NCBI GenBank assembly: GCA_041665145.1
Contig: JBAYJK010000002.1
Span: 104,339 to 168,338, forward strand
DNA length: 64,000 nt
Direction: 5' to 3'
From: Patescibacteria group bacterium
GTDB taxonomy: Bacteria; Patescibacteriota; Microgenomatia; UBA1406
Below, piece by piece: positions 1,285 through 62,929 of the stretch; within the stretch, counting starts at the first letter, position 1; the number at the start of each line of letters is the position of its first letter. Under the pieces are notes generated by a model. That model was not told the DNA's origin. It did not search any database and saw nothing but the letters and a program-made list of their open reading frames with translations. A program made the translations under genes and the position numbers.

Positions 1285-2913
1285 TTATTCTTCGAATGCC
1301 TTTATTCCCATCTTCCCTGCCTTCTCGGCTATTTTCTGAAACGCCGCCAAACGTTCAAGCTTGTAGCTATTGTAGTCGACGAATTTGAATGCATACTTGC
1401 CGACCAACGGATGTTTCTTGACTATCGCTTTTGCGATTTCCTGTGCGAGATACCGATAGGAGGAATGTCCTTGCGGGCCACTTCTTAATTCGGTTAAATG
1501 GATTGCTTCTCGAAGATTCATGCGCATCATATACCGAATCCGGTATCCCATCGGGACAACATACTGAGCTTCGTGGGGCATCGTACGGGCTATCTTTCGA
1601 TAAAGACCGTCAACACGTTCCATTGCATCTATGTATAATTTCTTCAGCTTCGGAAATGCGTTAAGTTCGACGGGAACGTTAAACCCGAGAAGTGTGGTAT
1701 ACGACTCGTGATACTGGGTAAGAACACGGTGCCGCTGCAAGTCATAAAATGCACCGATATCCGAGACAATTTCAAAGCTATAGTTGATTTGTTCAAAACC
1801 GCGTAATGCCTTGTGATGACGGTTCTCTCGTCTCCGAGTTGCTTGCTCAAGAATGCCTGTTTTTCTTTTTTCGGAGAGAGCTTTCACTTTCAAGAACAAT
1901 CGCTCCCACGAAATGTTCGAGTGAGGAAACAACAGGGCCGTAACAACCTTATCAAGTGCCTCTTTTTCTGCTTCAAAGAGAGTTAGTTCATTTCCGACAT
2001 TTTTCGGCAAGCGCTTTATCTCTTTCGTAACTCCGTACCCTTCCATACTTCCGACGGTATCTTTCAGGTATTGGGCAAACTTTACACCGCGTTCGTTATA
2101 CGCCCGGTGGACAAATGCCGGAATCACTTTTGATAATTCTTTGTGCATTGCCAGAGATACAGTCCGCGCTTCCTCAAGAGGAGATGCCGCTAACTTAATT
2201 AAAAGATATTCAAACGCTCTTCCGTTTCCATAGAGACCAACGTTTCGGTGTGCAGCCATCGGTAACAAGTATCGCGCGACATCACATGCTTTTGCTCTGC
2301 ACGAAGCCTTATATGCGATATCGCTGATTGCTTCACTCGGCTTCGGCTCCGAAACTAGTAACTCGTACATCTCGCGGACAATGTGTGAATACGTATCAAA
2401 AAGCATATCGAGCATTTTTTCGTACTCTTTTGCAAAACGAGATTTCATTATGGCTGGCTCCCGATAATAGGTGTACTTATTGTTGACTTTCTTATCAAAG
2501 AAAACATAGCGACTGGATTTTTCCAAGGGAGAAATTCCTACCCGTGCGTCTTCAAGAAGTTTGGCCAAAACACAACTGATGTTTTCGGTCGCAATATGCA
2601 CACCGCCCAATTCTGCAACAGAATCATCGCCATACCCGACGAGTACCCGTTCATAAAACTCCTCCGCCTTCTTGCTATTCACGCCTGACTCGTGACTCGT
2701 GACTCGTGACTCATTCTTAAACATTCCTCCGATTTCCCCATTATAAAATTCATCCAAAAACAGTCTGCGCACGGATTTAGCACTCCTGCTGTAACGGGAA
2801 AACAATGACCCTTTAACTACTTCGGGAAGATTGACAAGACAGAAGGTGTCAGAGTTAATTGAGGTAAAAAAACGCTTGAGAATTTCTTTCTCTTCTGCGG
2901 TGAATTCGCTCAT
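1285..2913 (-). CDS. thyX: FAD-dependent thymidylate synthase ThyX, long (about 540 aa) form
   Basis: ThyX signature RHR-x7-S present as RHRVLTQYHES. Downstream LREAIHLTELRSGPQGHSSYR. Roughly twice the usual ThyX length, so the N-terminal half may be a degenerate second domain. Confidence 0.7.
   Translation of the reverse strand: MSEFTAEEKEILKRFFTSINSDTFCLVNLPEVVKGSLFSRYSRSAKSVRRLFLDEFYNGEIGGMFKNESRVTSHESGVNSKKAEEFYERVLVGYGDDSVAELGGVHIATENISCVLAKLLEDARVGISPLEKSSRYVFFDKKVNNKYTYYREPAIMKSRFAKEYEKMLDMLFDTYSHIVREMYELLVSEPKPSEAISDIAYKASCRAKACDVARYLLPMAAHRNVGLYGNGRAFEYLLIKLAASPLEEARTVSLAMHKELSKVIPAFVHRAYNERGVKFAQYLKDTVGSMEGYGVTKEIKRLPKNVGNELTLFEAEKEALDKVVTALLFPHSNISWERLFLKVKALSEKRKTGILEQATRRRENRHHKALRGFEQINYSFEIVSDIGAFYDLQRHRVLTQYHESYTTLLGFNVPVELNAFPKLKKLYIDAMERVDGLYRKIARTMPHEAQYVVPMGYRIRYMMRMNLREAIHLTELRSGPQGHSSYRYLAQEIAKAIVKKHPLVGKYAFKFVDYNSYKLERLAAFQKIAEKAGKMGIKAFEE
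2686..2712. repeat. In-frame tandem heptamer block (GAGTCAC x3.8 on the coding strand) inside thyX
   Basis: Plus strand tgactcgtgactcgtgactcgtgactc. Encodes ESRVTSHES within MFKNESRVTSHESGVN. Confidence 0.75.
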
Positions 2914-2977: not shown

Positions 2978-3180
2978 TAAATTCAAAAATCAAATAGACA
3001 ACCCTCAAGTGAAATTCAAAATTCAAATGTCATCCCCGTGCAAACAAAATCCAGAATGCTTGTCATCCCCGCGGAGGCGGGGATCTAGATTCCATTTCTG
3101 GATTCCCGACTAGCTCGGGAATGACATCCTTTGAATTTTAAGCTTGATTTGTCATTTGTATATTTGAATTTTGAATTTAA
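2978..3180. repeat. Composite hairpin spacer (CAAAATT family arms around two GC-rich palindromic units); copy 1 of a direct repeat
   Basis: Arms aaattcaaaaatcaaatagacaaccctcaagtgaaattcaaaattcaaatgtcat and atgacatcctttgaattttaagcttgatttgtcatttgtatatttgaattttgaattt. Core hairpins catccccgcggaggcggggat and attcccgactagctcgggaat. Positions 2991-3178 repeat at 3863-4023. Confidence 0.6.
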
Positions 3181-3201
3181 CTTTTGTGGTACCATGTACC
3201 C

Positions 3202-3848: not shown

Positions 3849-4025
3849 TCAAATTCAACGCTCAAATAGACAACCCTCAAGTGAAATTCAAAATTTAAAT
3901 GTCATCCCCGGAACACAGTACCGGGGATCTAGATACAAGGTTCCTGGATTCCCGACTAGATCGGGAATGACATCCTTTGAATTTTAAGCTTGATTTGTCA
4001 TTTGTATATTTGAATTTTGAATTTA
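3849..4025. repeat. Composite hairpin spacer, copy 2 of the direct repeat
   Basis: caaatagacaaccctcaagtgaaattcaaaat..gtcatccccg..cggggatctagat..ctggattcccgactagatcgggaatgacatcctttgaattttaagcttgatttgtcatttgtatatttgaattttgaattt. Near-identical to 2991-3178 except for the first palindromic unit. Confidence 0.6.
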
Positions 4026-4113
4026 TATATGTATCAGCCTCTGAACCCGAGTTTTGCTCGATTCCAAAGGCTAATACCGCACGAAACTCTGCACGGGATT
4101 AGCTTGATGCATT

Positions 4114-5356: not shown

Positions 5357-5580
5357 ACAAGCCTCCTTGAAAGATTACTTACAGAACAGGCAGCAATCGC
5401 CTATCCGCAAGCTTTCCTAAGAGATTTCGGTCTCTTACGAAAGCCAGTAAGTATGCATATGTTAATGAACAAAATCCGAGATAAACACTATTGTTATAGT
5501 GTCAAATTGCTAGATTGCTAAAGATGAAACACAACAGTTTAGCAGTTTAACAATGAAATATACATATCAGATGTGTATTA

Positions 5581-9217: not shown

Positions 9218-11416
9218 AACTTCCGCAGCCTTTTCTGCTACTTTTTCCCGAACTACCCGCTCTATTTCACGAACACCATCCGTACTATTAAATACTTCCC
9301 TTACCCACATCTCGAGTTCCCCAGGTGAAACAGAAATTGTAATATTTTTTTCCTGCTGGTACTGAGCGGTAACTTTTTCCATAACCGCATACCCTATTCG
9401 TATTGCGTCCTCGACGTTGATCGGCTCGAATACAAGCACCTTGTCAAAGCGGTTTAAAAACTCCGGACTGAGTATTCCCTTCTCAATTACCAATTGCCGG
9501 ACTTCTTTGGTAAGTTCATTTCCCCGCATTCCCTGCTGAGCCCAGTCATATATTTCGTGCGCCCCGGCATTCGATGTTGCAACAACAATCAGATTTTTGG
9601 CATCAACTTTCTTACCGTATCCATCAACCACGTACCCTTCGTCAAGCAATGTGAGAAACACATTCAGCAAATCCTTGTGGGCTTTTTCTATTTCATCAAT
9701 AAGCAAAACAGTAAAGGGCTTTTCGCGGATTTTTTCGGCAAGGAGTCCGGGATTCTGTTTTTCAAATGAACCGATTAGGTCTCCGAGCGATTCTTTATTT
9801 TGGTAAAAAGACATATCGAGTCGGATTATATTTTCCGACGTACCAAAGAAAAGTTTGGCAATTGTCTTGGCGGTCTCTGTTTTTCCCACACCAGTTGGGC
9901 CCAAAAACATAAGACTTACCTTCGGCTTAGTCCTATTTTCCTCTATGAACGCACGTTGCACCGCATGAGTCACTTCGGTAAGTGCGGCATCCTGACCGAC
10001 CAGGCTTTTTTTCAGTAACGAGAAAAGATTGAGCAATGTATGTTTCGTTGTTTCATGAAGTGGTCCAATGGGCGTATGCATTTTTTGTGACAACACCGTA
10101 TCCACATCCTCCGGCATGACTTTTGACTCGCGACCCGTGACGCGTGACTCTTTCGCATGCCCGTCCCCTACGAAAGCACACACCTCATCCAACAATTCAA
10201 TTGCCTTCTCGGGAAACGGGACGTGGGTGATATAGAATTTACTTCTTGTAATTACCTGTTGGAGTGTCTCGAACGGGATAGTCAGACCGTATCGGCCTTC
10301 CAGGTATAAAGCCTTGTCTTCCAATATGAGTAGCGCTTTTTGTGTGGAGATTTCTTCAACTGCAACTTTTGAGAACAGTCGTGCGATTTTGTCATTGTGG
10401 TACACCACATGTTGAAAATAAAACGGTGTTGTTATGGCAACAAACTTCACCCTGGGAGATTTGCCAAAACGTTCCCATACATCCGAGAAATCCCCTACTA
10501 AACTTGCAGAACAATACAGGTGAAAATTATTAATCACTACAACCAAATTGCTTGCAAGGGAAGCTTCCTGTAACAAATCATTCAACAGAGACTCTTTTTC
10601 CTCATGCGATTTGCCGGCACTTAACACCCGTTCCATATCCAGTTCCACCATACGTAGGTTTTGTAATGGCGGCGTAGTGGTACCGTGATACATACGTTCG
10701 GCAAGTCCGCCGACAATCGCATGTTTCCCCACCCCCTCTTCTCCGACAAGAATAATATTTGCTTCATATGTTTTGCCAAGAGCCCGTTCAATCATGCGGA
10801 TTTCTTCCACCCGATCCTGCAACTCTCGAGTACTTGAAATAATTGTTGTTATATCCGTGCAGTAATTATCAAGTGTCGGGGTATACCCATATGCCCAATC
10901 GCGACCGATAGGTGGTGTTAACAGAAGGTTTTCCAAAGAAAACGCATCCGAATCTTGTACCTTTTTGGCATATTGACGCTCAAACCATGCGGTAACCGCA
11001 TCCGTACTGACCGCATCACATACATGGCTTTCAACAAAAATCTTTTTCCTGCGTTCTTTTGAATGTGCCGAGACAATTATCTGCTGCAAAAGGTACGCAA
11101 ACGGAGTCAGCAAAATGCTGACCAGCAGCCAGACAGGAATTGCCACAAAAGCATACAGAGTCATAACTACAAGATACGTAATAATTACTGAAACACGCAT
11201 CACAAAACCGACGCCGCGTGACACCCAATCCATTGATAATCTGTCCATGAGTGCTTCAAACGAAAACCCCCGTTCTTTCTTTACCGAGACAATCCGTTTC
11301 CATGGAGCGAAGAGGTTTTTGAAATGTGATTGCACATTAAAGTAATACGGCAAAAACAGCAGCACATTAATCATGTTGCGTACTTGGTGCCTCAGGAGGT
11401 CGAAAAACGAGATCAT
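9206..11416 (-). CDS. Clp/Hsp100-family double AAA+ ATPase with N-terminal transmembrane domain
   Basis: Walker A motifs GEEGVGKHAIV and GPTGVGKTETAK. VLLIDEIEKAHKDLLNVFLTLLDEG matches the ClpA/B D2 motif. Two N-terminal hydrophobic helices. Confidence 0.75.
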   Translation of the reverse strand: MISFFDLLRHQVRNMINVLLFLPYYFNVQSHFKNLFAPWKRIVSVKKERGFSFEALMDRLSMDWVSRGVGFVMRVSVIITYLVVMTLYAFVAIPVWLLVSILLTPFAYLLQQIIVSAHSKERRKKIFVESHVCDAVSTDAVTAWFERQYAKKVQDSDAFSLENLLLTPPIGRDWAYGYTPTLDNYCTDITTIISSTRELQDRVEEIRMIERALGKTYEANIILVGEEGVGKHAIVGGLAERMYHGTTTPPLQNLRMVELDMERVLSAGKSHEEKESLLNDLLQEASLASNLVVVINNFHLYCSASLVGDFSDVWERFGKSPRVKFVAITTPFYFQHVVYHNDKIARLFSKVAVEEISTQKALLILEDKALYLEGRYGLTIPFETLQQVITRSKFYITHVPFPEKAIELLDEVCAFVGDGHAKESRVTGRESKVMPEDVDTVLSQKMHTPIGPLHETTKHTLLNLFSLLKKSLVGQDAALTEVTHAVQRAFIEENRTKPKVSLMFLGPTGVGKTETAKTIAKLFFGTSENIIRLDMSFYQNKESLGDLIGSFEKQNPGLLAEKIREKPFTVLLIDEIEKAHKDLLNVFLTLLDEGYVVDGYGKKVDAKNLIVVATSNAGAHEIYDWAQQGMRGNELTKEVRQLVIEKGILSPEFLNRFDKVLVFEPINVEDAIRIGYAVMEKVTAQYQQEKNITISVSPGELEMWVREVFNSTDGVREIERVVREKVAEKAAEVLLK
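10123..10150. repeat. In-frame heptamer block inside the Clp-like gene
   Basis: Coding strand GAGTCAC GCGTCAC GGGTCGC GAGTCAA encodes ESRVTGRES, in the same frame and peptide as in thyX. Confidence 0.7.
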
Positions 11417-11553
11417 AGAATCAGTATACAGAAAATTAAGTTGTAAGTCGCAAGGTGTAAGATGTAATAAAGTCTGAAGTTGTAGGGTGTAAGTTGTAGT
11501 AAAATCCTAAGTTGATAAGCTGTAAGTAAGAAAAATTAGATTTATCTTTTGTT

Positions 11554-11886
11554 CTATGCGGTTTTAAGAGAGCTGGAGAAAATGAAAATTAATTGACGTA
11601 TTTCGTTGCGCAATCTCTCTAGAGCTGAATTGCTTTCTTCTTTATTAAGTAACTCTAACCAGTATTCAGTCTCCATAGCCTCCTTTTTGCAAATGGCTAG
11701 CTTTGTTATAAAGTCTTTTTTAGATACCGCACCACCAGCTTCTCTATAGTTTGCACCGATACTGGTCGATGATCGAAGCAATTGCTCAATTATATTTTTG
11801 TTAAAAGTTGTTTGTTGACAGGCTTTCAGATATTCAATAACTTTAACCGAGAAGTTACTTGTCCTTTCTCTTAAGTCATACATCAC
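11554..11886 (-). CDS. Four-helix-bundle protein (23S rRNA intervening-sequence protein family)
   Basis: 110 aa. LLRSSTSIGANYREA and KDFITKLAICKKEAMETEYWLELL match my recollection of the family signature (S.GANI.EG .. E..ET..WL). Confidence 0.7.
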   Translation of the reverse strand: MMYDLRERTSNFSVKVIEYLKACQQTTFNKNIIEQLLRSSTSIGANYREAGGAVSKKDFITKLAICKKEAMETEYWLELLNKEESNSALERLRNEIRQLIFIFSSSLKTA

Positions 11887-12019
11887 TTGATGCTATTTAT
11901 TTTCTAGCTTTATTACAACGGTTTATATACATCTCTACTCACATAATGTCCCACTTGTAACTTGCAACTTACTACTTACACCTTTAATACAACTTACAAC
12001 CTACGCCTTACGACTTTTT

Positions 12020-12682: not shown

Positions 12683-13114
12683 ATGAAATTCTCAATCAAA
12701 CGAATAGATAAAACGCTTCCCCTTCCGGAATACCAAACCAAAGGTTCTGTCGGTTTCGATCTGTCTTCACGAACGGATATGAAGATTGCTTCTCACACGC
12801 TGGCGCTCGTACCGACGAATCTTGTCGTGAAGGTTCCCGAGGGCTACATGCTTCTTGTTGTACCCCGTAGTTCCACACCCAAGAAAAAGGGGCTCCTTAT
12901 TCCCCACGGCATAGGCGTTATCGATCAGGATTATTGTGGAGAAAAAGATGAAGTTTTGTTTCAGGTGTATAACTTCACTGATCAGGAAGTAACAGTTTCT
13001 CGCGGAGAACGGATTGCCCAAGGTATCTTGGTAAAAGTCGGAGTAGCGGAATTTGAAGAAAAAGATACCGCCCACTCCGACAGTTCACGTGGAGGAATCG
13101 GGTCGACTGGTTAA
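12683..13114 (+). CDS. dut: dUTP diphosphatase
   Basis: GSVGFDL, PRSS, GVIDQDYCGE, C-terminal SRGGIGSTG. All are dUTPase motifs. Confidence 0.85.
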   Translation: MKFSIKRIDKTLPLPEYQTKGSVGFDLSSRTDMKIASHTLALVPTNLVVKVPEGYMLLVVPRSSTPKKKGLLIPHGIGVIDQDYCGEKDEVLFQVYNFTDQEVTVSRGERIAQGILVKVGVAEFEEKDTAHSDSSRGGIGSTG

Positions 13115-13166
13115 TGGTTTATAGTTTATGGTTAATAGTCAAGAGTTAAGAGTTAAGAGTCAAAGA
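13115..13166. repeat. One-armed tandem heptamer block between convergent dut and permease genes
   Basis: ggtttat agtttat ggttaat agtcaag agttaag agttaag agtcaaa, with a strict 7-nt period. Confidence 0.5.
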
Positions 13167-20511: not shown

Positions 20512-21582
20512 ATGAGCGACATTAAATTTAAGCTTCTTCACCGCCAACAAATTACACAGTCGCTCCGGAGTTTTTTGTTCCAGCGCGGGTATCTTGAAGC
20601 AGATGTTCCTGTATTGGTCCCAAGCCTTATTCCCGAAAGCTATCTGGAAGTATTTGAGACCAGTATTAAAGGTCCCACCATTAACCATCAACTATCAACT
20701 GATAACTATAAGGCTTATTTAACCGCCTCCCCCGAAGCATACCTCAAACGTTTGCTTGTTGCCGGATCCGGAAATGTGTTCTATCTGGGGAAAGCGTTCC
20801 GAAATGGTGAGCCATTCGGACCGATGCATAACCATGAGTTCACAATATTGGAATGGTACAAAATCGGGGCTTCCTATCGATCTCTTATGGCTGAAATCGA
20901 AGAGATGGTGCGATCTGTCCTTGAGGGTTTAACCCTTACAGGGTTAAACCCTGCAAGCCTATCGTCACCCTGGGAATATATCACCATGCAGGAAGCGTTC
21001 GAACGGTTTGTGCCAAAGGACGAAATTGTTAAATTGCTAAACGGCCAAATTGCTGACAATAGCAATATAGCATTAGAACAATTTAACAATAGTGTTGAAT
21101 TTGATCGTCTCTACGTTCAATATATCGAGCCGAATCTTGGCACACGCGGTAAGCCAACGTTCGTAATAGACTTCCCAACCTGGCAATCGCCTCTAGCAAA
21201 ATCACGGATCACGAATCACGAATCACGAAACAAACGCACAGATAAACACTCGATCCGAGATACGAGATGCGAGATGCGAGATGTGGTTGCCGAGCGATTT
21301 GAATTGTATATTAATGGAATCGAGCTGATTAACGGCTGGACAGAGCTGGCCGACTGGAAGAAGCAGCAGGATAACTTTGATGCAGAACAACAGGAGCGCA
21401 CAGTTCAGAACAAGACTCCCTACCCTGCAGATACCGGCTTTATCGAAGCGCTGAGAAAAGGGATGCCCGAATGCAGCGGGTGTGCAATGGGAGTAGACAG
21501 ATTGATAATGGTGCTGACAGGAAAGAAGACGCTGGATGAGGTAATTGCTTTTCCGACAAAAGATTTATTCAAGACTCGTTAA
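20512..21582 (+). CDS. epmA: EF-P lysine aminoacylase EpmA-like (class II LysRS catalytic core without anticodon domain)
   Basis: Motif 2 FRNGEPFGPMHNHEFTILEWY. AERFELYINGIELINGWTEL. Motif 3 GCAMGVDRLIMVLTG. About 350 aa. efp lies in the same window. Confidence 0.6.
   Translation: MSDIKFKLLHRQQITQSLRSFLFQRGYLEADVPVLVPSLIPESYLEVFETSIKGPTINHQLSTDNYKAYLTASPEAYLKRLLVAGSGNVFYLGKAFRNGEPFGPMHNHEFTILEWYKIGASYRSLMAEIEEMVRSVLEGLTLTGLNPASLSSPWEYITMQEAFERFVPKDEIVKLLNGQIADNSNIALEQFNNSVEFDRLYVQYIEPNLGTRGKPTFVIDFPTWQSPLAKSRITNHESRNKRTDKHSIRDTRCEMRDVVAERFELYINGIELINGWTELADWKKQQDNFDAEQQERTVQNKTPYPADTGFIEALRKGMPECSGCAMGVDRLIMVLTGKKTLDEVIAFPTKDLFKTR
21198..21283. repeat. In-frame two-block heptamer mini-insertion inside epmA
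   Basis: AATCACG GATCACG AATCACG AATCACG - 24 nt - CGAGATA CGAGATG CGAGATG CGAGATG. Encodes SRITNHESRNKRTDKHSIRDTRCEMRDV between the conserved LAK and VAERFE. Confidence 0.75.
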
Positions 21583-45855: not shown

Positions 45856-46010
45856 AATAGCAATTTAAAATTCAAAATTTGAAATTTAAAATCAATTCAA
45901 AATTCTTAATTTGAAATTCTAAAACTTCACGGAAAATATTCATCAGGAATTCAGAATTGACTAGAAATTTTGAATTTCGAATTTCGAATTAAATTTTTGC
46001 TTCAGCGAAA
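45856..46010. repeat. Hairpin spacer (AAATTCAAAAT family) between the 16S trailer and efp
   Basis: aatttaaaattcaaaatttgaaatttaaaatcaattcaaaattc .. gaaattttgaatttcgaatttcgaattaaattt. Confidence 0.5.
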
Positions 46011-46111: not shown

Positions 46112-47762
46112 GAAAGGAGATGATCCAGCCGCTCCTTCCAGAACGGCTACCTTGTTACGACTTAGTCCCCATCGCTACATTCACCCTAGTTCCCCGTTAT
46201 TGGGGCTTTTTAAGTGCCTGTAACTTTGGTGGCTTGACGGGCGGTGAGTGCAAGACCCAAGAACGTATTCACCGCGGTGTAGCTGACCCGCGATTACTAC
46301 GAATTCCGCGTTCATGAGGGCGAATTTCAGCCCTCAATCCCCACTGAGAATAGATTTCAGCGATTTGCATCTTCTTACGAAGTCGCTAAGCGCGTTGTTG
46401 CTACTCATTGTAACATGTGTGCAGCCCAGGGTATAAGCGACATGATGACTTGACGTCCGCCTCTCCTTCCTCCTCGACGATAGTCGAGGCAGTCTCCTGA
46501 GACACTTGTAACTCAGGATAAGGGTTGCGCTCGTTGTCCCACTTAAGGGCACTCCTCACGGAACGAGCTGACGACAGCCATGCACCAGCTGTTCCAACCT
46601 TCTTGCGAATTTCTCCCGTTTCCGGGAAATAGGACGTTGGAATGTCAAACCCTGGTGAGGTTCTTCGGTTCGTGTCGAATTGAGCCACATGTTCCACTCG
46701 TTGTGTGGGTCCCCGCCTATTCATTTGAGTTTTAACCTTGCGGTCGTACTTCCCAGGCGGTCTGCTTAATGCGTAAGCTTGCGCCCCTCCCTTCCCGATA
46801 AATCGGGAAAAGAAGAACTAGCAGACATGCGTTTAAGGCTAGGACTACAGGGGTCTCTAATCCCTTTCGCTCCCCTAGCTTTCGAGCCTCAGCGTCAGTC
46901 GATTTCCAGGAAGTTGCCTTCGCCATTGGTATTCCATTCTTTATCAACGCATTTTACCGCTACAAAGAATGTTCTACTTCCCTGAAAAGAACTCTAGGCT
47001 GGTAGTATTGCACCCGACTCCTCGTTGAGCGAGGAGATTTTAAGCACAACTTACCAGTCCGCCTACGCGTCCCTTTACGCCCAATAAAACCGGATAATGC
47101 TTGTGGCCTACGTTTGACCGATGCTTCTGGCACGTAGTTTGCAGCCACTTTCTAGCGAGGTACCGTCAAATCCTTGCGGACCTTCTTCCCTCGCCACAGC
47201 GGTTTACGACCCTAAGGCCTTCTTCCCGCACGCGGTGTCGCTGCGTCAGGCTTTCGCCCATTGCGCAATATTCTTGGTTGCTGCCTCCCGTAGGAGTGGG
47301 GGCCGTATCTCAGTCCCCCTCTGGCTGTCCGTCCTCCAAGACCAGCTACCCGTCATAGGTTTGGTAAGCCGTTACCTCACCAACTGCCTGATAGGCCGCA
47401 GGCCCCTCCCATAGTGAGCAGTTACGCCCTTTCTTCTTACGAACGTATGGAGTATTACCCCGTCTTTCGACGAGCTATCCTCCGCTACGGGGTAGGTTCC
47501 CACGTGTTACTCAGCCGTCCGCCGCTGGAATCATAGACAGCACATAGGAAATAAACTCAAAATTCAAATCCACAAAAATCAAATCAAACTCAAATAACAA
47601 ATGTTTGAAGTTTCAAACATTGAGATTTTGAATTTGAATTGTGGATTTGTTATTTGTCATTTGAATTTTATTCACTGTGTGCTGTCCACAAAACCCGCTC
47701 GACTTGCATACCTAAGACACACCGCCAGCATTTATCCTGAGCCATGATCAAACTCTTAAATA
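46112..47762 (-). rRNA. 16S rRNA gene with about 110-130-nt insertion in the V1 helix; not followed by 23S
   Basis: 5' AGAGTTTGATCATGGCTCAG. 3' GTCGTAACAAGGTAGCCG..GGATCATCTCCTTTCT. Conserved blocks are present throughout. efp follows about 250 nt downstream. Confidence 0.9.
47535..47687 (-). other. Intervening-sequence-like extension of 16S helix 6 (V1)
   Basis: Base stem acagcaca(c)ag / ct(a)tgtgctgt encloses a CAAAATT-family hairpin. 36/39 identity to the intergenic copy at 1153-1191. Confidence 0.6.
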
Positions 47763-47847
47763 TGTGAATAGATTTTTGAGGTCTAATCGTTATATTAGAG
47801 TAGAAATTTGCTTTTATTATAAGTACAAAATGAATAGATGAACCGTC

Positions 47848-49210: not shown

Positions 49211-49557
49211 TATTCTTGTTTCTGATTATGCTTTTCAGCAACTTCTAGCGCAGCATCAATATCGTGATCTTTCATATATTGCTGCATCTTGCCGATAACT
49301 ACGTTTAATTTTTTCTCGTTGTGATATGAATCAAGATACTCTTTCAGTGTAGCAAAAAGAGGAAATTTTGCTACATAAGCTGCAATTTTCTGTTGAGCAT
49401 CTGTGACAGACCCAAATGGCTCAAGCGCACGAAATTCCTGTGCCGTTGTTTTGGCAAAAGCAAGCGTTACGGCATTGTCTTTCATCGCCTGCGCAATCGT
49501 TTTAAGATACAAGTATTCGATTTTATCCGTCAGCTCTTTGAGTTCATTATTATTCAT
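49210..49557 (-). CDS. Small helical protein (115 aa)
   Basis: Same size class and coupling style as the small proteins at 22.4-34.6 kb. No clear sequence similarity to them. Confidence 0.5.
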   Translation of the reverse strand: MNNNELKELTDKIEYLYLKTIAQAMKDNAVTLAFAKTTAQEFRALEPFGSVTDAQQKIAAYVAKFPLFATLKEYLDSYHNEKKLNVVIGKMQQYMKDHDIDAALEVAEKHNQKQE

Positions 49558-49646
49558 AGTCTTATTTCTTATTTCTTATTACTTGCTACTTATTACTTTC
49601 CTTTATACCTTCTACTTTCTACTTTTTACTTTTATAAGTATGTTAC
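49558..49646. repeat. One-armed tandem heptamer block
   Basis: cttattt cttattt cttatta cttgcta cttatta ctttcct ttatacc ttctact ttctact ttttact, with a strict 7-nt period. Confidence 0.55.
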
Positions 49647-51832: not shown

Positions 51833-53968
51833 ATGAATACTTTTGTTTTTGTCGTTGTTAACGCTCTGTTTGTTCTAACACCACTTATTTTTTCAACCCG
51901 TTCAAGCGAGCTGTTTGAATTCCCGAAGCTTCTTGTAATCTATTTCGGAGCAGCATTACTATTACCGCTTGTTATATATAAAGTATATTCAAATGTTAAT
52001 CGCGGATCACGGATCACGGATCGCGAGTCAAAGACATCAATTCCTCAAGACACTCAGACACTCAGACGCTCAGACGCGAGACGGGTTTTGATTTTTGCAA
52101 GTATTGGCTTGTTTTTTATCTCCCAATTACTTTCTACCTACTTTTCCATTGATCAGCACACATCCGTCTTTGGCTACTATTCGCGCTTTAACGGCGGAAT
52201 CCTTTCACTTGTTTCATACCTGATAATTTTTGCAAGTATCTACCTCTTTTTTTCGAAAGAACAGGTTGGAAGACTGCTGATTACCATATTTTTTGGCGGT
52301 GTATTAGTCGCACTTTGGGGCTTACCATCGCATTTTGGACATGATTTTATCTGTTTGCTGGCTCAAGGAAGTTTTAGTGTTTCGTGTTGGACCGCAGAGT
52401 TCTATCCGCCCGCTAGGATGTTCTCAACCCTCGGCCAACCGAATTGGTTTGCGACGTATTTATTGGTCTTGGCTTTCGTGAACCTTTATTTGTTAGCTAT
52501 AGGTTATAGGATAACGAACAAAATAAGTGATCAGGTTACAAGGAATATATATTTAATACTCTTCGCATTATTTAGCATAGAAATTCTTTGGACTAACTCA
52601 AAATCTGGAATGATAGCTTATATAGTATTAGTCCCGCTATTTTTTGCGACGCTTTTTATATTCAAAAAAAACTTTGCCGTTTCTATCCCAAAACGCATCC
52701 AATTCTTTGCACTGTTTACCTATATGGCAATCGGAGTACTATTTGCATTGCCATACAGCGGGAGAATAATTCAACAGTTTTCACCTCAAAAACCGAAAGT
52801 CACTACATCGACAACACCGCAAAAAGTGCAACAACCGGATGCCCAGCTCAACATAACACCGTCTACGGAAATTCGCAAAGTCGTATGGCAAGGAGCGTGG
52901 GAACTCGCGCTTCAAAACCCGTTTTTTGGAACAGGGGTTGAGACATTTGCTTATGCGTATAATTTCACTCGACCAATGGAACACAATAAATTTTCGGAGT
53001 GGGAGTTTGTCTACAATAAGGCACATAATGAGTTGCTTAATTTTGCCGCAACAAGCGGGTTTTTCGGTCTTGGAACCTATCTTCTGATGTTTGCTGCATT
53101 TCTTCTGCCTGCGGTGTTTTACTTTTTATCTTCAAAGACAAAAAGTATTCCGGGCGAAGTAACTTCGCCCCTACGAATTTTCTCACTTATGTATGTACTT
53201 GCAATGCTGGGAATATTTTTTATGAATCTTGTCGGGTTTTCTACAACCGTTTCAAGCCTTTTGTTTTATTCCCTACCCGCAATGTTTCTCATCATGACTC
53301 GTGACGAGCAACTCGTGACGAGCGACCAAAGAACAACAGGCAATAACCGTACTACCGACTCCGGTTCCTTCCTCCCCACTACTCCCTTCATATTATATGT
53401 ACTCTTTGTCGTGAGTAGTTTATTTTACTTTGCAAATTACTTTATGGCAGATTACTACTATGCCCGTGCAAAAGAGGCACGCCAAGCAAATGACACCGCA
53501 AGTGCCTATCAATATGGACAACAGGCAATAGATATCCGTCGCGAACCGGCATACGTGGATCAACAGTCATTTTTAAGCGCGAACATCGCCTCGTCGCTTA
53601 CCATGCAGAAAGACACAAAAAATGCTGAAGCAGTTGCGAAACAAGCAATACTTATGAATGAAGAAGTTCTTGAGGGATCGCCGAAAAATGTTTTTTACCT
53701 CAAAACATCAGCGAAAGTATATTACGTACTTGCGATGAATTATATTGATAATCAGACACGCTCAACCGAATATTTGAATAAAGCGATTCTGGCATTGCAA
53801 AGATCCATGGAACTCGCACCGACAGATCCCAAGATCCCATATACACTTGCAGCCATTATTGTAGACACAAAACCTGAGGAGGCCAAAAAGTTGTTAGAGC
53901 AAACCATTAGTTTAAAATCCGATTACACCCCGGCACATGAGTTACTCGAAAAAATTACTACACAGTAG
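51833..53968 (+). CDS. O-antigen ligase/polymerase-like (Wzy_C) membrane protein with C-terminal TPR repeats
   Basis: More than 10 TM helices. NKAHNELLNFAATSGFFGLGTYL matches H-N-x-x-L..E/S-x-G. C-terminal A/Y/L-rich TPR-like repeats. Confidence 0.65.
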   Translation: MNTFVFVVVNALFVLTPLIFSTRSSELFEFPKLLVIYFGAALLLPLVIYKVYSNVNRGSRITDRESKTSIPQDTQTLRRSDARRVLIFASIGLFFISQLLSTYFSIDQHTSVFGYYSRFNGGILSLVSYLIIFASIYLFFSKEQVGRLLITIFFGGVLVALWGLPSHFGHDFICLLAQGSFSVSCWTAEFYPPARMFSTLGQPNWFATYLLVLAFVNLYLLAIGYRITNKISDQVTRNIYLILFALFSIEILWTNSKSGMIAYIVLVPLFFATLFIFKKNFAVSIPKRIQFFALFTYMAIGVLFALPYSGRIIQQFSPQKPKVTTSTTPQKVQQPDAQLNITPSTEIRKVVWQGAWELALQNPFFGTGVETFAYAYNFTRPMEHNKFSEWEFVYNKAHNELLNFAATSGFFGLGTYLLMFAAFLLPAVFYFLSSKTKSIPGEVTSPLRIFSLMYVLAMLGIFFMNLVGFSTTVSSLLFYSLPAMFLIMTRDEQLVTSDQRTTGNNRTTDSGSFLPTTPFILYVLFVVSSLFYFANYFMADYYYARAKEARQANDTASAYQYGQQAIDIRREPAYVDQQSFLSANIASSLTMQKDTKNAEAVAKQAILMNEEVLEGSPKNVFYLKTSAKVYYVLAMNYIDNQTRSTEYLNKAILALQRSMELAPTDPKIPYTLAAIIVDTKPEEAKKLLEQTISLKSDYTPAHELLEKITTQ
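51998..52085. repeat. In-frame two-block repeat mini-insertion in the ligase-like gene
   Basis: AATCGCG GATCACG GATCACG GATCGCG AGTCAAA - spacer - GACACTCA GACACTCA GACGCTCA GACGCGA. Encodes GSRITDRESKTSIPQDTQTLRRSDARR. Confidence 0.75.
53296..53326. repeat. Second, oppositely oriented heptamer-type repeat in the same gene
   Basis: gactcgtgacgagcaactcgtgacgagcgac (14-mer actcgtgacgagc x2). Encodes TRDEQLVTSD. Confidence 0.55.
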
Positions 53969-61690: not shown

Positions 61691-61836
61691 TGCTCTATAA
61701 AGTTTCTAGTTTTTAATTTCTAGTTTCTATTGAATTTTTAATTGCTATTTGTTAGTTACTAAACATATTTAGAAATTAATACTTAGAAACTAGCAATTTA
61801 TTAGAAACTATAAGTTAGCAATTAGAAACTATATAC
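61691..61836. repeat. Hairpin spacer, AGTTTCTATTGA family
   Basis: tttctag tttttaa tttctag tttctat tga (agtttctattga at 61722-61733). Right arm ttagaaactagcaatttattagaaactataagttagcaattagaaact. Confidence 0.6.
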
Positions 61837-62367
61837 ATGATTCTTCCCATCGTTACCGCTCCACAAAGCGTACTCTCTACGCCCACAAGGCAAATTACTA
61901 CAATCGATAAAAAAATCCGTGAGCTTATTCGCGATATGACTGATACGCTTTTGTCCTGCAAAGATCCACTTGGCGTGGGGTTAGCTGCTCCTCAAGTAGG
62001 TGTTCCGCTTGCCCTCTGCATTGTGAAACCGACCAGGAAATCGCCCGTTGAGGTTTTCATAAACCCCAAAATCGTTGCGTTCTCTAATAAAAAAACTATT
62101 CATAAATCAACTCTCGAAGGTTGTCTTTCCATTCCGAAGGTCTGGTCACATGTTAATAGACCGACAACCGTTGACGTCGAATACGAGACGATGGAAGGCG
62201 TGAAACTCCGACGACATATTACCGGGTATGAGGCGCATATTATTCAACACGAGGTTGATCATTTGAATGGTGTCCTCTTCACACACCAAGCGCTTTCACA
62301 ACACCAACCGTTTTACACCATAAAACGGAAAAACGGTGAAGAAGAGTTTGTGGAAATGGAACTGTGA
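61837..62367 (+). CDS. def: Peptide deformylase
   Basis: GVGLAAPQVG, EGCLSIP, QHEVDHLNG. All three PDF motifs are present. Confidence 0.9.
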   Translation: MILPIVTAPQSVLSTPTRQITTIDKKIRELIRDMTDTLLSCKDPLGVGLAAPQVGVPLALCIVKPTRKSPVEVFINPKIVAFSNKKTIHKSTLEGCLSIPKVWSHVNRPTTVDVEYETMEGVKLRRHITGYEAHIIQHEVDHLNGVLFTHQALSQHQPFYTIKRKNGEEEFVEMEL

Positions 62368-62758: not shown

Positions 62759-62929
62759 AGGGTTGTTGTGACGCGACGAGGTTCAATTGCTCGGTTGCTA
62801 TATTGTTAAATTGTTGGTGAAACATATAAACTGTGAAGTTACTTGTTTCTGCCGACTTGAAGATTCTACTACAACACGATTAATCGTGAATCTTCACGGA
62901 GAGCCAAAGAAACAATGTAACAAACAGTT

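Follow-up and report, generated by a model that had tools for sequence, protein, structure and literature searches.

We analysed a 64,000-nucleotide (nt) stretch of contig JBAYJK010000002.1 from a Patescibacteria group bacterium (hereafter the window, to which all coordinates refer). The nearest named relatives of this bacterium are Roizmanbacteria of the Candidate Phyla Radiation (CPR). Our subject is a set of short tandem arrays of heptanucleotides with the core TCRCG, which lie in frame inside four protein-coding genes of the window: an epmA-like gene, thyX, the gene of a Clp-like AAA+ ATPase and a Wzy-like gene. The four arrays are a real family. They probably result from heptanucleotide tandem repeats that expand and homogenise in place and are then filtered by selection, so that they would be near-neutral extensions of protein loops. 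A preliminary description, made from the sequence alone, had interpreted the segment in epmA as one in-frame insertion that behaves like the Rickettsia palindromic elements (RPEs).

Two repeat blocks flank an old loop core in epmA

The epmA-like gene (20512..21582, + strand) is an open reading frame (ORF) of 356 codons for an elongation factor P (EF-P) lysine ligase of the EpmA/GenX type. Its product matches PF00152 at E=2e-53 and the EpmA structures 3A5Z/3A5Y of the Protein Data Bank (PDB) at E~1e-53, and its catalytic core is intact. The closest orthologues found by BLASTP, P0002 and P0003, are 73% and 64% identical. The loop between the conserved segments QSPLAK and VAERFELY has 27 amino acids (aa) in the window protein, 8–9 aa in P0002 and P0003 and 8 aa in E. 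coli EpmA (PDB 3A5Z), which amounts to a gain of ~19 aa. The preliminary description was thus correct in seeing added length here, although its estimate of ~21 residues was slightly high; the E. coli loop, which it put at ~7 residues, has 8.

Two blocks of heptamers account for this segment, and both lie inside the epmA-like ORF as originally described, at 21200-21227 and 21256-21283. Block 1 (21200..21227, + strand) consists of four TCACGRA-type heptamers, AATCACG GATCACG AATCACG AATCACG, and has no counterpart in P0002 and P0003. Block 2 (21253..21283, + strand), as delimited by Tandem Repeats Finder (TRF) and alignment, contains ~4.3 units of ATRCGAG, which in another phase are CGAGATA followed by three copies of CGAGATG at 21256-21283. 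Both blocks flank a stretch (21229..21252, + strand; AAC AAA CGC ACA GAT AAA CAC TCG, encoding NKRTDKHS) that aligns to P0002 and P0003. P0002 reads AAC CGA ACA GAT AGC... at this position and has the heptamer ACAGATA in common with the window; P0003 reads TCA CGA GAG ACA GGT.... In the orthologue DNA alignment the blocks enclose a conserved core, AAC-CGN-ACAGATA.

Read in codons, the region has a 24-nt core with an insert of 27 nt before it and one of 30 nt after it. The spacer between the blocks had been given as 24 nt; this is the length of the codon-phase core, while 28 nt separate the heptamers in the phase in which they were written. The first insert (21202-21228) encodes SRITNHESR. It equals a TCACGA seed plus exactly three units (21 nt), and the seed, TCACGA(G), is common to the window and P0003 in the DNA alignment. 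The second gain is 30 nt in frame (21253-21282) and encodes IRDTRCEMRD. When 21 nt are removed from each block, an orthologue-like loop remains, AKSRNKRTDKHSIRDVVAERFE. Since the stretch between the blocks is the old loop, at least two separate gains must have occurred, one on each side. The view of the segment as one inserted unit has to be given up: the blocks flank an ancestral core, and block 1 is a pre-existing seed extended by 21 nt.

In the minimum-energy fold of the segment, the units of block 1 pair with those of block 2 one by one. This fold is, however, no better than those of shuffled sequences (z=+0.33), and block 2 is complementary to block 1 (compared as its reverse complement) at 5/7 positions (P=0.09). 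A hairpin whose second arm was mutated so as to lose its TGA is suggestive by eye, but with z~0 and such a match it is not claimed here.

The epmA arrays are not an assembly artefact, because contigs from two other samples (L001 and L002) carry epmA arrays that are 100% identical to those in the window. One of these contigs also covers part of the Clp gene, but not the Clp array. Copy-number polymorphism was sought between the samples and none was found among the three assemblies.

An AlphaFold (AF2) model of the protein is confident overall, with a mean pLDDT of 85.3. Weak coil segments are limited to residues ~53-66, 141-150, 171-190 and 230-257, and, when the model is compared with the TRF and alignment results, all four coincide with repeat-derived stretches of DNA. 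The idea that the inserts occupy surface loops is borne out: in the EpmA model the segment is a low-confidence coil, and the arrays of the Clp-like ATPase, the Wzy-like protein and ThyX are placed in variable loops by alignment.

A family of TCRCG arrays in four unrelated genes

Arrays of the block-1 type recur, as the preliminary description had noticed, on the coding strand of thyX, the Clp-like ATPase gene and the Wzy-like gene, and encode the peptides listed there. In thyX (1285-2913, - strand; a 542-aa ThyX with two stretches matched to the Thy1 profile) TRF reports a perfect array of GAGTCAC x3.9 (2685..2712, - strand), which encodes ESRVTSHES and is followed by one reverse-type unit, GCGTGAA. 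The array is missing from an 82%-identical orthologue (P0122), whose loop at this site is longer and non-repetitive. Another homologue (P0124) has KNES-G where the window has KNES[RVTSHES]G, a difference of 21 nt. The gain relative to the seed is hence the same in thyX and in epmA block 1, i.e. 21 nt or three units, and the assemblies of the same species are all identical. The loop is variable in all ThyX homologues and at the same time similar in length across them, which points to a replaced loop with no net insertion.

The 736-aa Clp-like ATPase contains the array GAGTCAC GCGTCAC GGGTCGC GAGTCAA (10123..10150, - strand) after its AAA-lid domain. Here the gain is 27 nt or 9 aa (ESRVTGRES), and a gap is found at this position in 24/24 aligned homologues. 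The Wzy-like (Wzy_C) gene codes for a 711-aa membrane protein and has two blocks in the loop between two N-terminal transmembrane helices. Block 1 (51998..52033, + strand) is AATCGCG GATCACG GATCACG GATCGCG (AGTCAAAG); block 2 (52046..52084, + strand) is an in-frame array of CAGACRCT x4 for which TRF gives a period of 8 with 95% matches. The loop has ~30 aa in the window vs 4-10 aa in homologues, a gain of about 15-20 aa. The two-block layout of epmA is repeated in the Wzy-like gene only, thyX and Clp having one arm, and a hairpin between the Wzy blocks is no better than in shuffles (z=+0.24). The 3' 19 nt of the Clp array match the Wzy array at 18/19 positions (E about 0.004), with the unit variants in the same order.

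The expectation of a lineage-specific insertion, examined by orthologue alignments, therefore holds for epmA, Clp and Wzy and fails for thyX, where a loop was replaced. All four host ORFs are intact, and the arrays stand in frame in unrelated genes at positions compatible with the fold. Matches to three TCRCGNR units occurred in 0/100 dinucleotide-preserving shuffles of the window. The TCRCG core is present in four of the six coding arrays of the window, although it represents 1-3% of the possible or tolerable heptamers; even among stop-free, mostly hydrophilic units the probability of this recurrence is about 1e-5. Coding constraints alone were considered as its cause and are insufficient, as TCRCG units make up 2.8% of the tolerable ones.

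Two further observations concern these genes. The best ThyX matches outside the CPR (45-50% identity) include DPANN archaea (Aenigmatarchaeota, Micrarchaeota and Woesearchaeota), a similarity that suggests shared ancestry or transfer between two ultra-small groups. The Wzy-like ORF also has a perfect 14-nt tandem duplication at 53297-53323, ACTCGTGACGAGCA x1.9, which holds the reverse-type unit CTCGTGAC, the reverse complement of the thyX unit GTCACGAG. It comprises two copies only, so that its TGA stays out of frame.

Reading frame and strand

The preliminary description had stressed that the element is always read in the same frame. This is true and yet uninformative, as it is forced by a unit of 7 nt. 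Because 7 is not a multiple of 3, a heptamer array covers all three codon phases every 21 nt, and every frame gives an identical cyclic heptapeptide (ESRVTSH or ESRITNH). Read on the opposite strand, TCAC-type units put a TGA in each of the three frames, and 6/6 coding arrays are on the sense strand. An intact gene can therefore accommodate such an array only on the sense strand and in the "same frame". MacGregor (2015; PMC4679880) used this argument on frame and strand for the TAACTGA repeats. The general rule is that a tandem repeat with a unit length not divisible by three will always show "same frame" and "coding strand only", and neither counts as evidence.

Period 7 in the window, in relatives and in other phyla

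With a strict threshold the window contains four arrays at lag 7, compared with none at the other lags from 4 to 12 and none in shuffles. A loose threshold gives 18 arrays at lag 7 vs 0-5 at other lags. The suggestion that the insert follows the same 7-nt periodic logic as the intergenic spacers is thus confirmed, period 7 being the sole enriched period. Non-coding sequence makes up 9% of the window and has twelve of the 18 arrays; the other six are in genes (thyX, Clp, epmA three times, and Wzy). The TCRCG sub-family is the exception to this intergenic bias, with 4/4 copies in coding sequence. The arrays as a whole have the properties of a heptanucleotide family: at least three head-to-tail 7-nt units, many loci, an excess of period 7, a mostly intergenic location and an asymmetry between strands. 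A universal TCA/TGA core in all arrays was rejected, as its 1.56-fold enrichment is not significant after correction for 32 tests. No intergenic TCRCG array that could have served as donor is present in the 74 kb of genome examined (the window plus 10 kb at its right edge), and the additional 10 kb has no array.

Several arrays occupy conspicuous places between genes. Heptamer arrays make up the whole of the spacers 49556-49637, 13105-13166 and 61695-61836; an array rich in purines, with AAGTARA as its sense-strand unit, adjoins the start codon at 49557; one heptamer array spans the gap between convergent genes; and a strong hairpin (z=-6.4) finishes just before the start at 61837.

A census of the clade covered 881 kb around epmA in related CPR genomes, the best metagenome match listed being 56% identical. 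It gave 39 arrays at lag 7, compared with 10 and 9 at lags 8 and 5, and their distribution is patchy, with a concentration in a few genomes. The epmA gene is a hot spot in these loci (L127-L206), since ~10 of the 39 arrays are in this gene, which makes up ~9% of the sequence. The epmA arrays of relatives are always at the same three variable regions and are built from unrelated units (AAATCAC, AAAGTCA, GATAAGR, AAATTTA, GCTCATN and GGGTACA). No trinucleotide core is common to all arrays.

In a scan of species-representative genomes TCRCGNR arrays were present in many phyla among the matches listed. Most of the matches listed are just upstream of start codons or have the form (CGTGA)n-spacer-(TCACG)n, and 24/144 are deep inside ORFs. 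TCACGNR arrays of other phyla (L010, L030, L036, L044, L070, L078 and others) lie from a few to ~20 nt upstream of starts, often after a reverse-complement array; judged by their N-terminal sequence alone, the genes downstream resemble a carbamoyl-phosphate synthase large subunit, an RNase III-like protein and a lipoprotein. These upstream arrays resemble the TAACTGA pattern (PMC4679880). In viral contigs the TCRCG pattern was found at 93 loci, compared with at least 120 for each of three composition-matched control heptamer patterns. We therefore reject the idea that TCACG-type heptamers are a special element found across phyla: heptanucleotide arrays are a general class in which TCRCG is not special globally, because control heptamers are at least as common. 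The unusual feature is the density of arrays in the host genome.

Other repeat-derived stretches of epmA

Three further stretches of epmA derive from repeats. In the N-terminal loop TRF finds the heptamer array AACCATC AACTATC AACTGAT AACTATA (20683..20710, + strand). Orthologues have homologous arrays at the same site with other units: AACTATC in the window corresponds to AACNATC in P0002 and to a perfect GACTCGC x3 in P0003. The orthologues thus differ by parallel substitutions in all units, which marks a tandem array that has evolved in concert at its site. A direct repeat of ~15 nt with a palindrome, AGGGTTtAACCCT, is found at 20924..20952 (+ strand) and also in P0002; it falls in a low-confidence loop (pLDDT 68 for residues 141-150).

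The third stretch (21023..21092, + strand) consists of in-frame inverted arrays with a period of 8 nt, (AAATTGYT)x4 / (ARCAATNT)x4, which were detected by TRF and form a strong hairpin (-20.9 kcal/mol, z=-4.61). The closest orthologues have no counterpart; P0002/P0003 show a 31-nt gap, and pLDDT values in the segment are 61-76. Intergenic relatives of this hairpin are located at ~5490-5555 and ~62790-62818. This 8-nt-period hairpin, which the preliminary description did not flag, is the most RPE-like part of epmA, as it has the palindromic, stable structure of RPEs, unlike blocks 1 and 2.

Dispersed hairpins, the 16S rRNA gene and the IVP gene

The AT-rich arrays are often inverted pairs and form strong hairpins (z=-3.4 to -6.4). 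One of them is inserted in the 16S rRNA gene (46113-47763, - strand), where 149 nt at 47545-47695 extend the loop of helix 6. In the Rfam model the same loop is 4 nt long. The inserted sequence folds as a hairpin of heptamer arrays (z=-3.4) and is a close copy of the intergenic hairpin 1125-1275, with 91% identity over 46 nt and a match in the other arm as well.

Dispersed periodic hairpins of this AT-rich type (AAATTCA/CAAATNN) are located at 1125-1275, 2990-3190, 3985-4035 and 45860-45995. The copies 3120-3190 and 3985-4035 are near-identical, and the copy 2990-3190 encloses a GC-rich structured core, GTCATCCCCGCGGAGGCGGGGATC.... An Rfam scan of the window gave the 16S rRNA and three tRNAs only.

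Arrays also surround a gene of the 23S_rRNA_IVP family (PF05635; ORF 11554..11886, - strand), which is flanked by inverted heptamer arrays, TAAGTTG / AACTTAC, at 11437-11527 and 11959-12016. In a relative (L005, 3932-4510) an IVP gene stands between two AATTCAA-type arrays directly after thyX, where the window has the "empty" hairpin 1125-1275. From its sequence the IVP gene with its array flanks looks like a putative cassette with periodic-array arms and variable cargo.

Origin of the arrays

We favour expansion and homogenisation in place, followed by selection, as the probable origin of these loop extensions. The TCRCG arrays of epmA, thyX, Clp and Wzy would then be members of a larger population of 7-8-nt arrays, which is spread over the genome and occupies most of its intergenic spacers, and such arrays would grow and homogenise in place by slippage or unequal exchange. 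That arrays apparently do grow locally is shown, at the level of sequence comparison, by the additions of 21 nt to pre-existing seeds in epmA and thyX and by the parallel substitutions in all units. Within genes, selection would accept an added length divisible by 3 (21 nt, or three units, where whole units are added), would demand the stop-free orientation and would confine arrays to loops that tolerate a hydrophilic, disordered peptide. The arrays would be near-neutral passengers that lengthen surface loops, not functional modules.

Several facts weigh against this explanation. Purely local, independent seeding does not predict the recurrent TCRCG core. The arrays of Clp and Wzy have their 3' end in common. 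Both the 8-nt family and the family of AT-rich hairpins are present at several loci, including epmA and the 16S gene, and some mechanism of dispersal therefore exists in the genome. A gain of three units in one step is not the commonest outcome of slippage and is deduced from what selection allows. The assemblies are identical, with no variants in unit number. Finally, the best orthologues of Clp and Wzy are only 56% and 48% identical, which limits the dating and bounding of both gains. The shared core, the 19-nt end and the multi-locus families together suggest an occasional seeding of one array by another; new loci may thus sometimes be copied from an existing array, by ectopic templated repair or conversion, besides arising from local seeds.

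Such copying could also be the main origin. The arrays would then be a very small dispersed repeat, segments of 21-30 nt that are copied by templated break repair or gene conversion and afterwards drift or expand locally. This would account for the recurrent core, for the similar 3' ends of Clp and Wzy, for the length of 27 nt in both the epmA block-1 stretch and the Clp gain, and for the existence of three periodic families at several loci each; conversion could also explain why the N-terminal-loop array of epmA is of the TCGCG type in P0003 where the window has ATCAAC. We nevertheless consider it rather unlikely, as the 74 kb examined contain no intergenic TCRCG donor, the seeds in epmA and thyX favour local growth, and related genomes have many different units. 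It is likewise doubtful, in our opinion, that an active, sequence-biased process writes 7-8-nt arrays, singly or as inverted pairs, and copies them between loci as "mobile microsatellites" of 21-30 nt, with TCRCG as their coding-compatible form; the targets of this process would be intergenic spacers, helix 6 of 16S rRNA, the flanks of 23S_rRNA_IVP genes and surface loops of essential proteins. More unlikely still is a discrete palindromic mobile element with an arm-spacer-arm structure, similar to an RPE or to a miniature inverted-repeat transposable element (MITE), that inserts whole and in frame into unrelated genes. The in-frame, lineage-specific loop gains in four unrelated genes, the two-block layout of epmA and Wzy, the array family beyond chance with its shared Clp/Wzy end, and the dispersed hairpins with periodic arms, including one within the 16S gene and an in-frame one in epmA, are what such an element would produce. 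However, the "spacer" of epmA is ancestral loop, so that two or more gains are needed, and block 1 comes from a seed shared with an orthologue; the epmA and Wzy blocks form no significant hairpin and the epmA arms are complementary at 5/7 positions (P=0.09); thyX and Clp are one-armed; and neither inspection of the aligned flanks nor BLAST searches with them revealed terminal inverted repeats, target-site duplications or common flanks. The gains of 21, 27, 27 and 30 nt are much shorter than RPEs (~150 bp) and have only the heptamer core in common, and the argument from the frame is void.

Two other explanations have far less to recommend them. The peptide ESR[VI]T(S/N/D/G)(H/R)ES might have a function as a linear motif, such as a site for binding or modification, that was recruited into several proteins, and its presence in exposed, disordered positions of four proteins agrees with this. 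But its identity follows from the DNA repeat in any frame, the perfect repeats (100% unit identity in thyX) indicate a recent expansion of DNA and not convergent selection on protein, the orthologous loops encode unrelated array peptides, and the units are so far identical at all sites, with no synonymous divergence; a selected motif is thus very improbable. An ancestral sequence or an assembly artefact is scarcely credible. It is true that the thyX loop has a similar length in all homologues and that the epmA loop of P0003 looks like a decayed array, but the epmA, Clp and Wzy segments are missing from all close and distant orthologues, and the identical epmA sequence was assembled from two other samples.

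If growth in place is the correct explanation, a simple repeat process at the DNA level can account for loop inserts in the housekeeping proteins of CPR bacteria, instead of adaptation or a mobile palindrome. This is relevant to the reading of many lineage-specific inserts in CPR proteins and rRNAs. Given the recurrent unit family and the dispersed hairpins, including the one in 16S, these small genomes may have a dedicated mechanism that forms or copies arrays.

Comparison with known systems

A literature search found no description of such heptamer arrays in CPR bacteria. RPEs are discrete palindromic units of about 100-150 bp in ten sequence families, which are inserted whole; they extend unrelated housekeeping proteins in frame by a recurrent peptide, at sites that the fold can accommodate (PMC10969869). 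The arrays described here are similar in that they add a recurrent peptide in frame to unrelated proteins. In contrast to RPEs they are tandem arrays of 21-30 nt that flank ancestral sequence, have no significant hairpin and apparently grew from local seeds. Judged by the features of RPEs in that study (PMC10969869), the RPE-like behaviour proposed in the preliminary description fails with respect to size, family consensus, hairpin and insertion as a whole unit. The rRNA genes of CPR bacteria are known to contain intervening sequences and other insertions (PMC11270868). The AT-rich hairpin that forms the 149-nt insert in 16S helix 6, and the arrays that flank 23S_rRNA_IVP genes, resemble these insertions; this likeness concerns the AT-rich family and not the TCRCG arrays, and the same hairpin is also found in ordinary intergenic spacers. 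The terminal inverted repeats and target-site duplication of a MITE were not found by flank alignment and BLAST.

Coding microsatellites and phase-variable contingency loci also have tandem repeats within ORFs, and there the frame shifts whenever units are gained or lost in numbers other than multiples of three. The arrays share with them the short tandem repeats inside ORFs. They differ in having 3-4 units, in residing in essential housekeeping genes instead of surface or virulence genes, and in the lack of copy-number polymorphism in three assemblies.

The closest known systems are the TAACTGA repeats and the short tandemly repeated repetitive (STRR) sequences of cyanobacteria. STRR heptanucleotide sequences were reportedly described by Mazel et al. 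in 1990. They are tandem heptanucleotides that form families throughout a genome; several unit types occur side by side in one genome, and no function is known for them. The host genome examined here likewise has several tandem heptanucleotide unit types throughout. To our knowledge the STRR are described as intergenic and from heterocystous cyanobacteria, and in-frame copies in essential genes or an insertion in rRNA are not part of that description; the host genome has both. The use of STRR as a fingerprint is mentioned in PMC5088731.

The TAACTGA heptamer repeats occur in marine Beggiatoaceae, Cyanobacteria and Bacteroidetes, in 2-6 or more head-to-tail copies at many, mostly intergenic loci (MacGregor 2015, PMC4679880). 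One orientation has stops in all frames and the other encodes a repeating heptapeptide, the few copies in ORFs are in the translatable orientation, and indels between strains occur in 7-nt steps (PMC4679880). In TAACTGA a single dominant unit lies just upstream of start codons, whereas the host genome has several families (TCRCG, AAATTCA-like, AGTTTCT and the 8-nt AAATTGYT), often as inverted pairs, and its TCRCG family is seen only inside housekeeping genes. The two systems nevertheless agree in their basic organisation: both consist of head-to-tail 7-nt arrays at many loci that are mostly intergenic, with the copies in ORFs standing in the translatable orientation.

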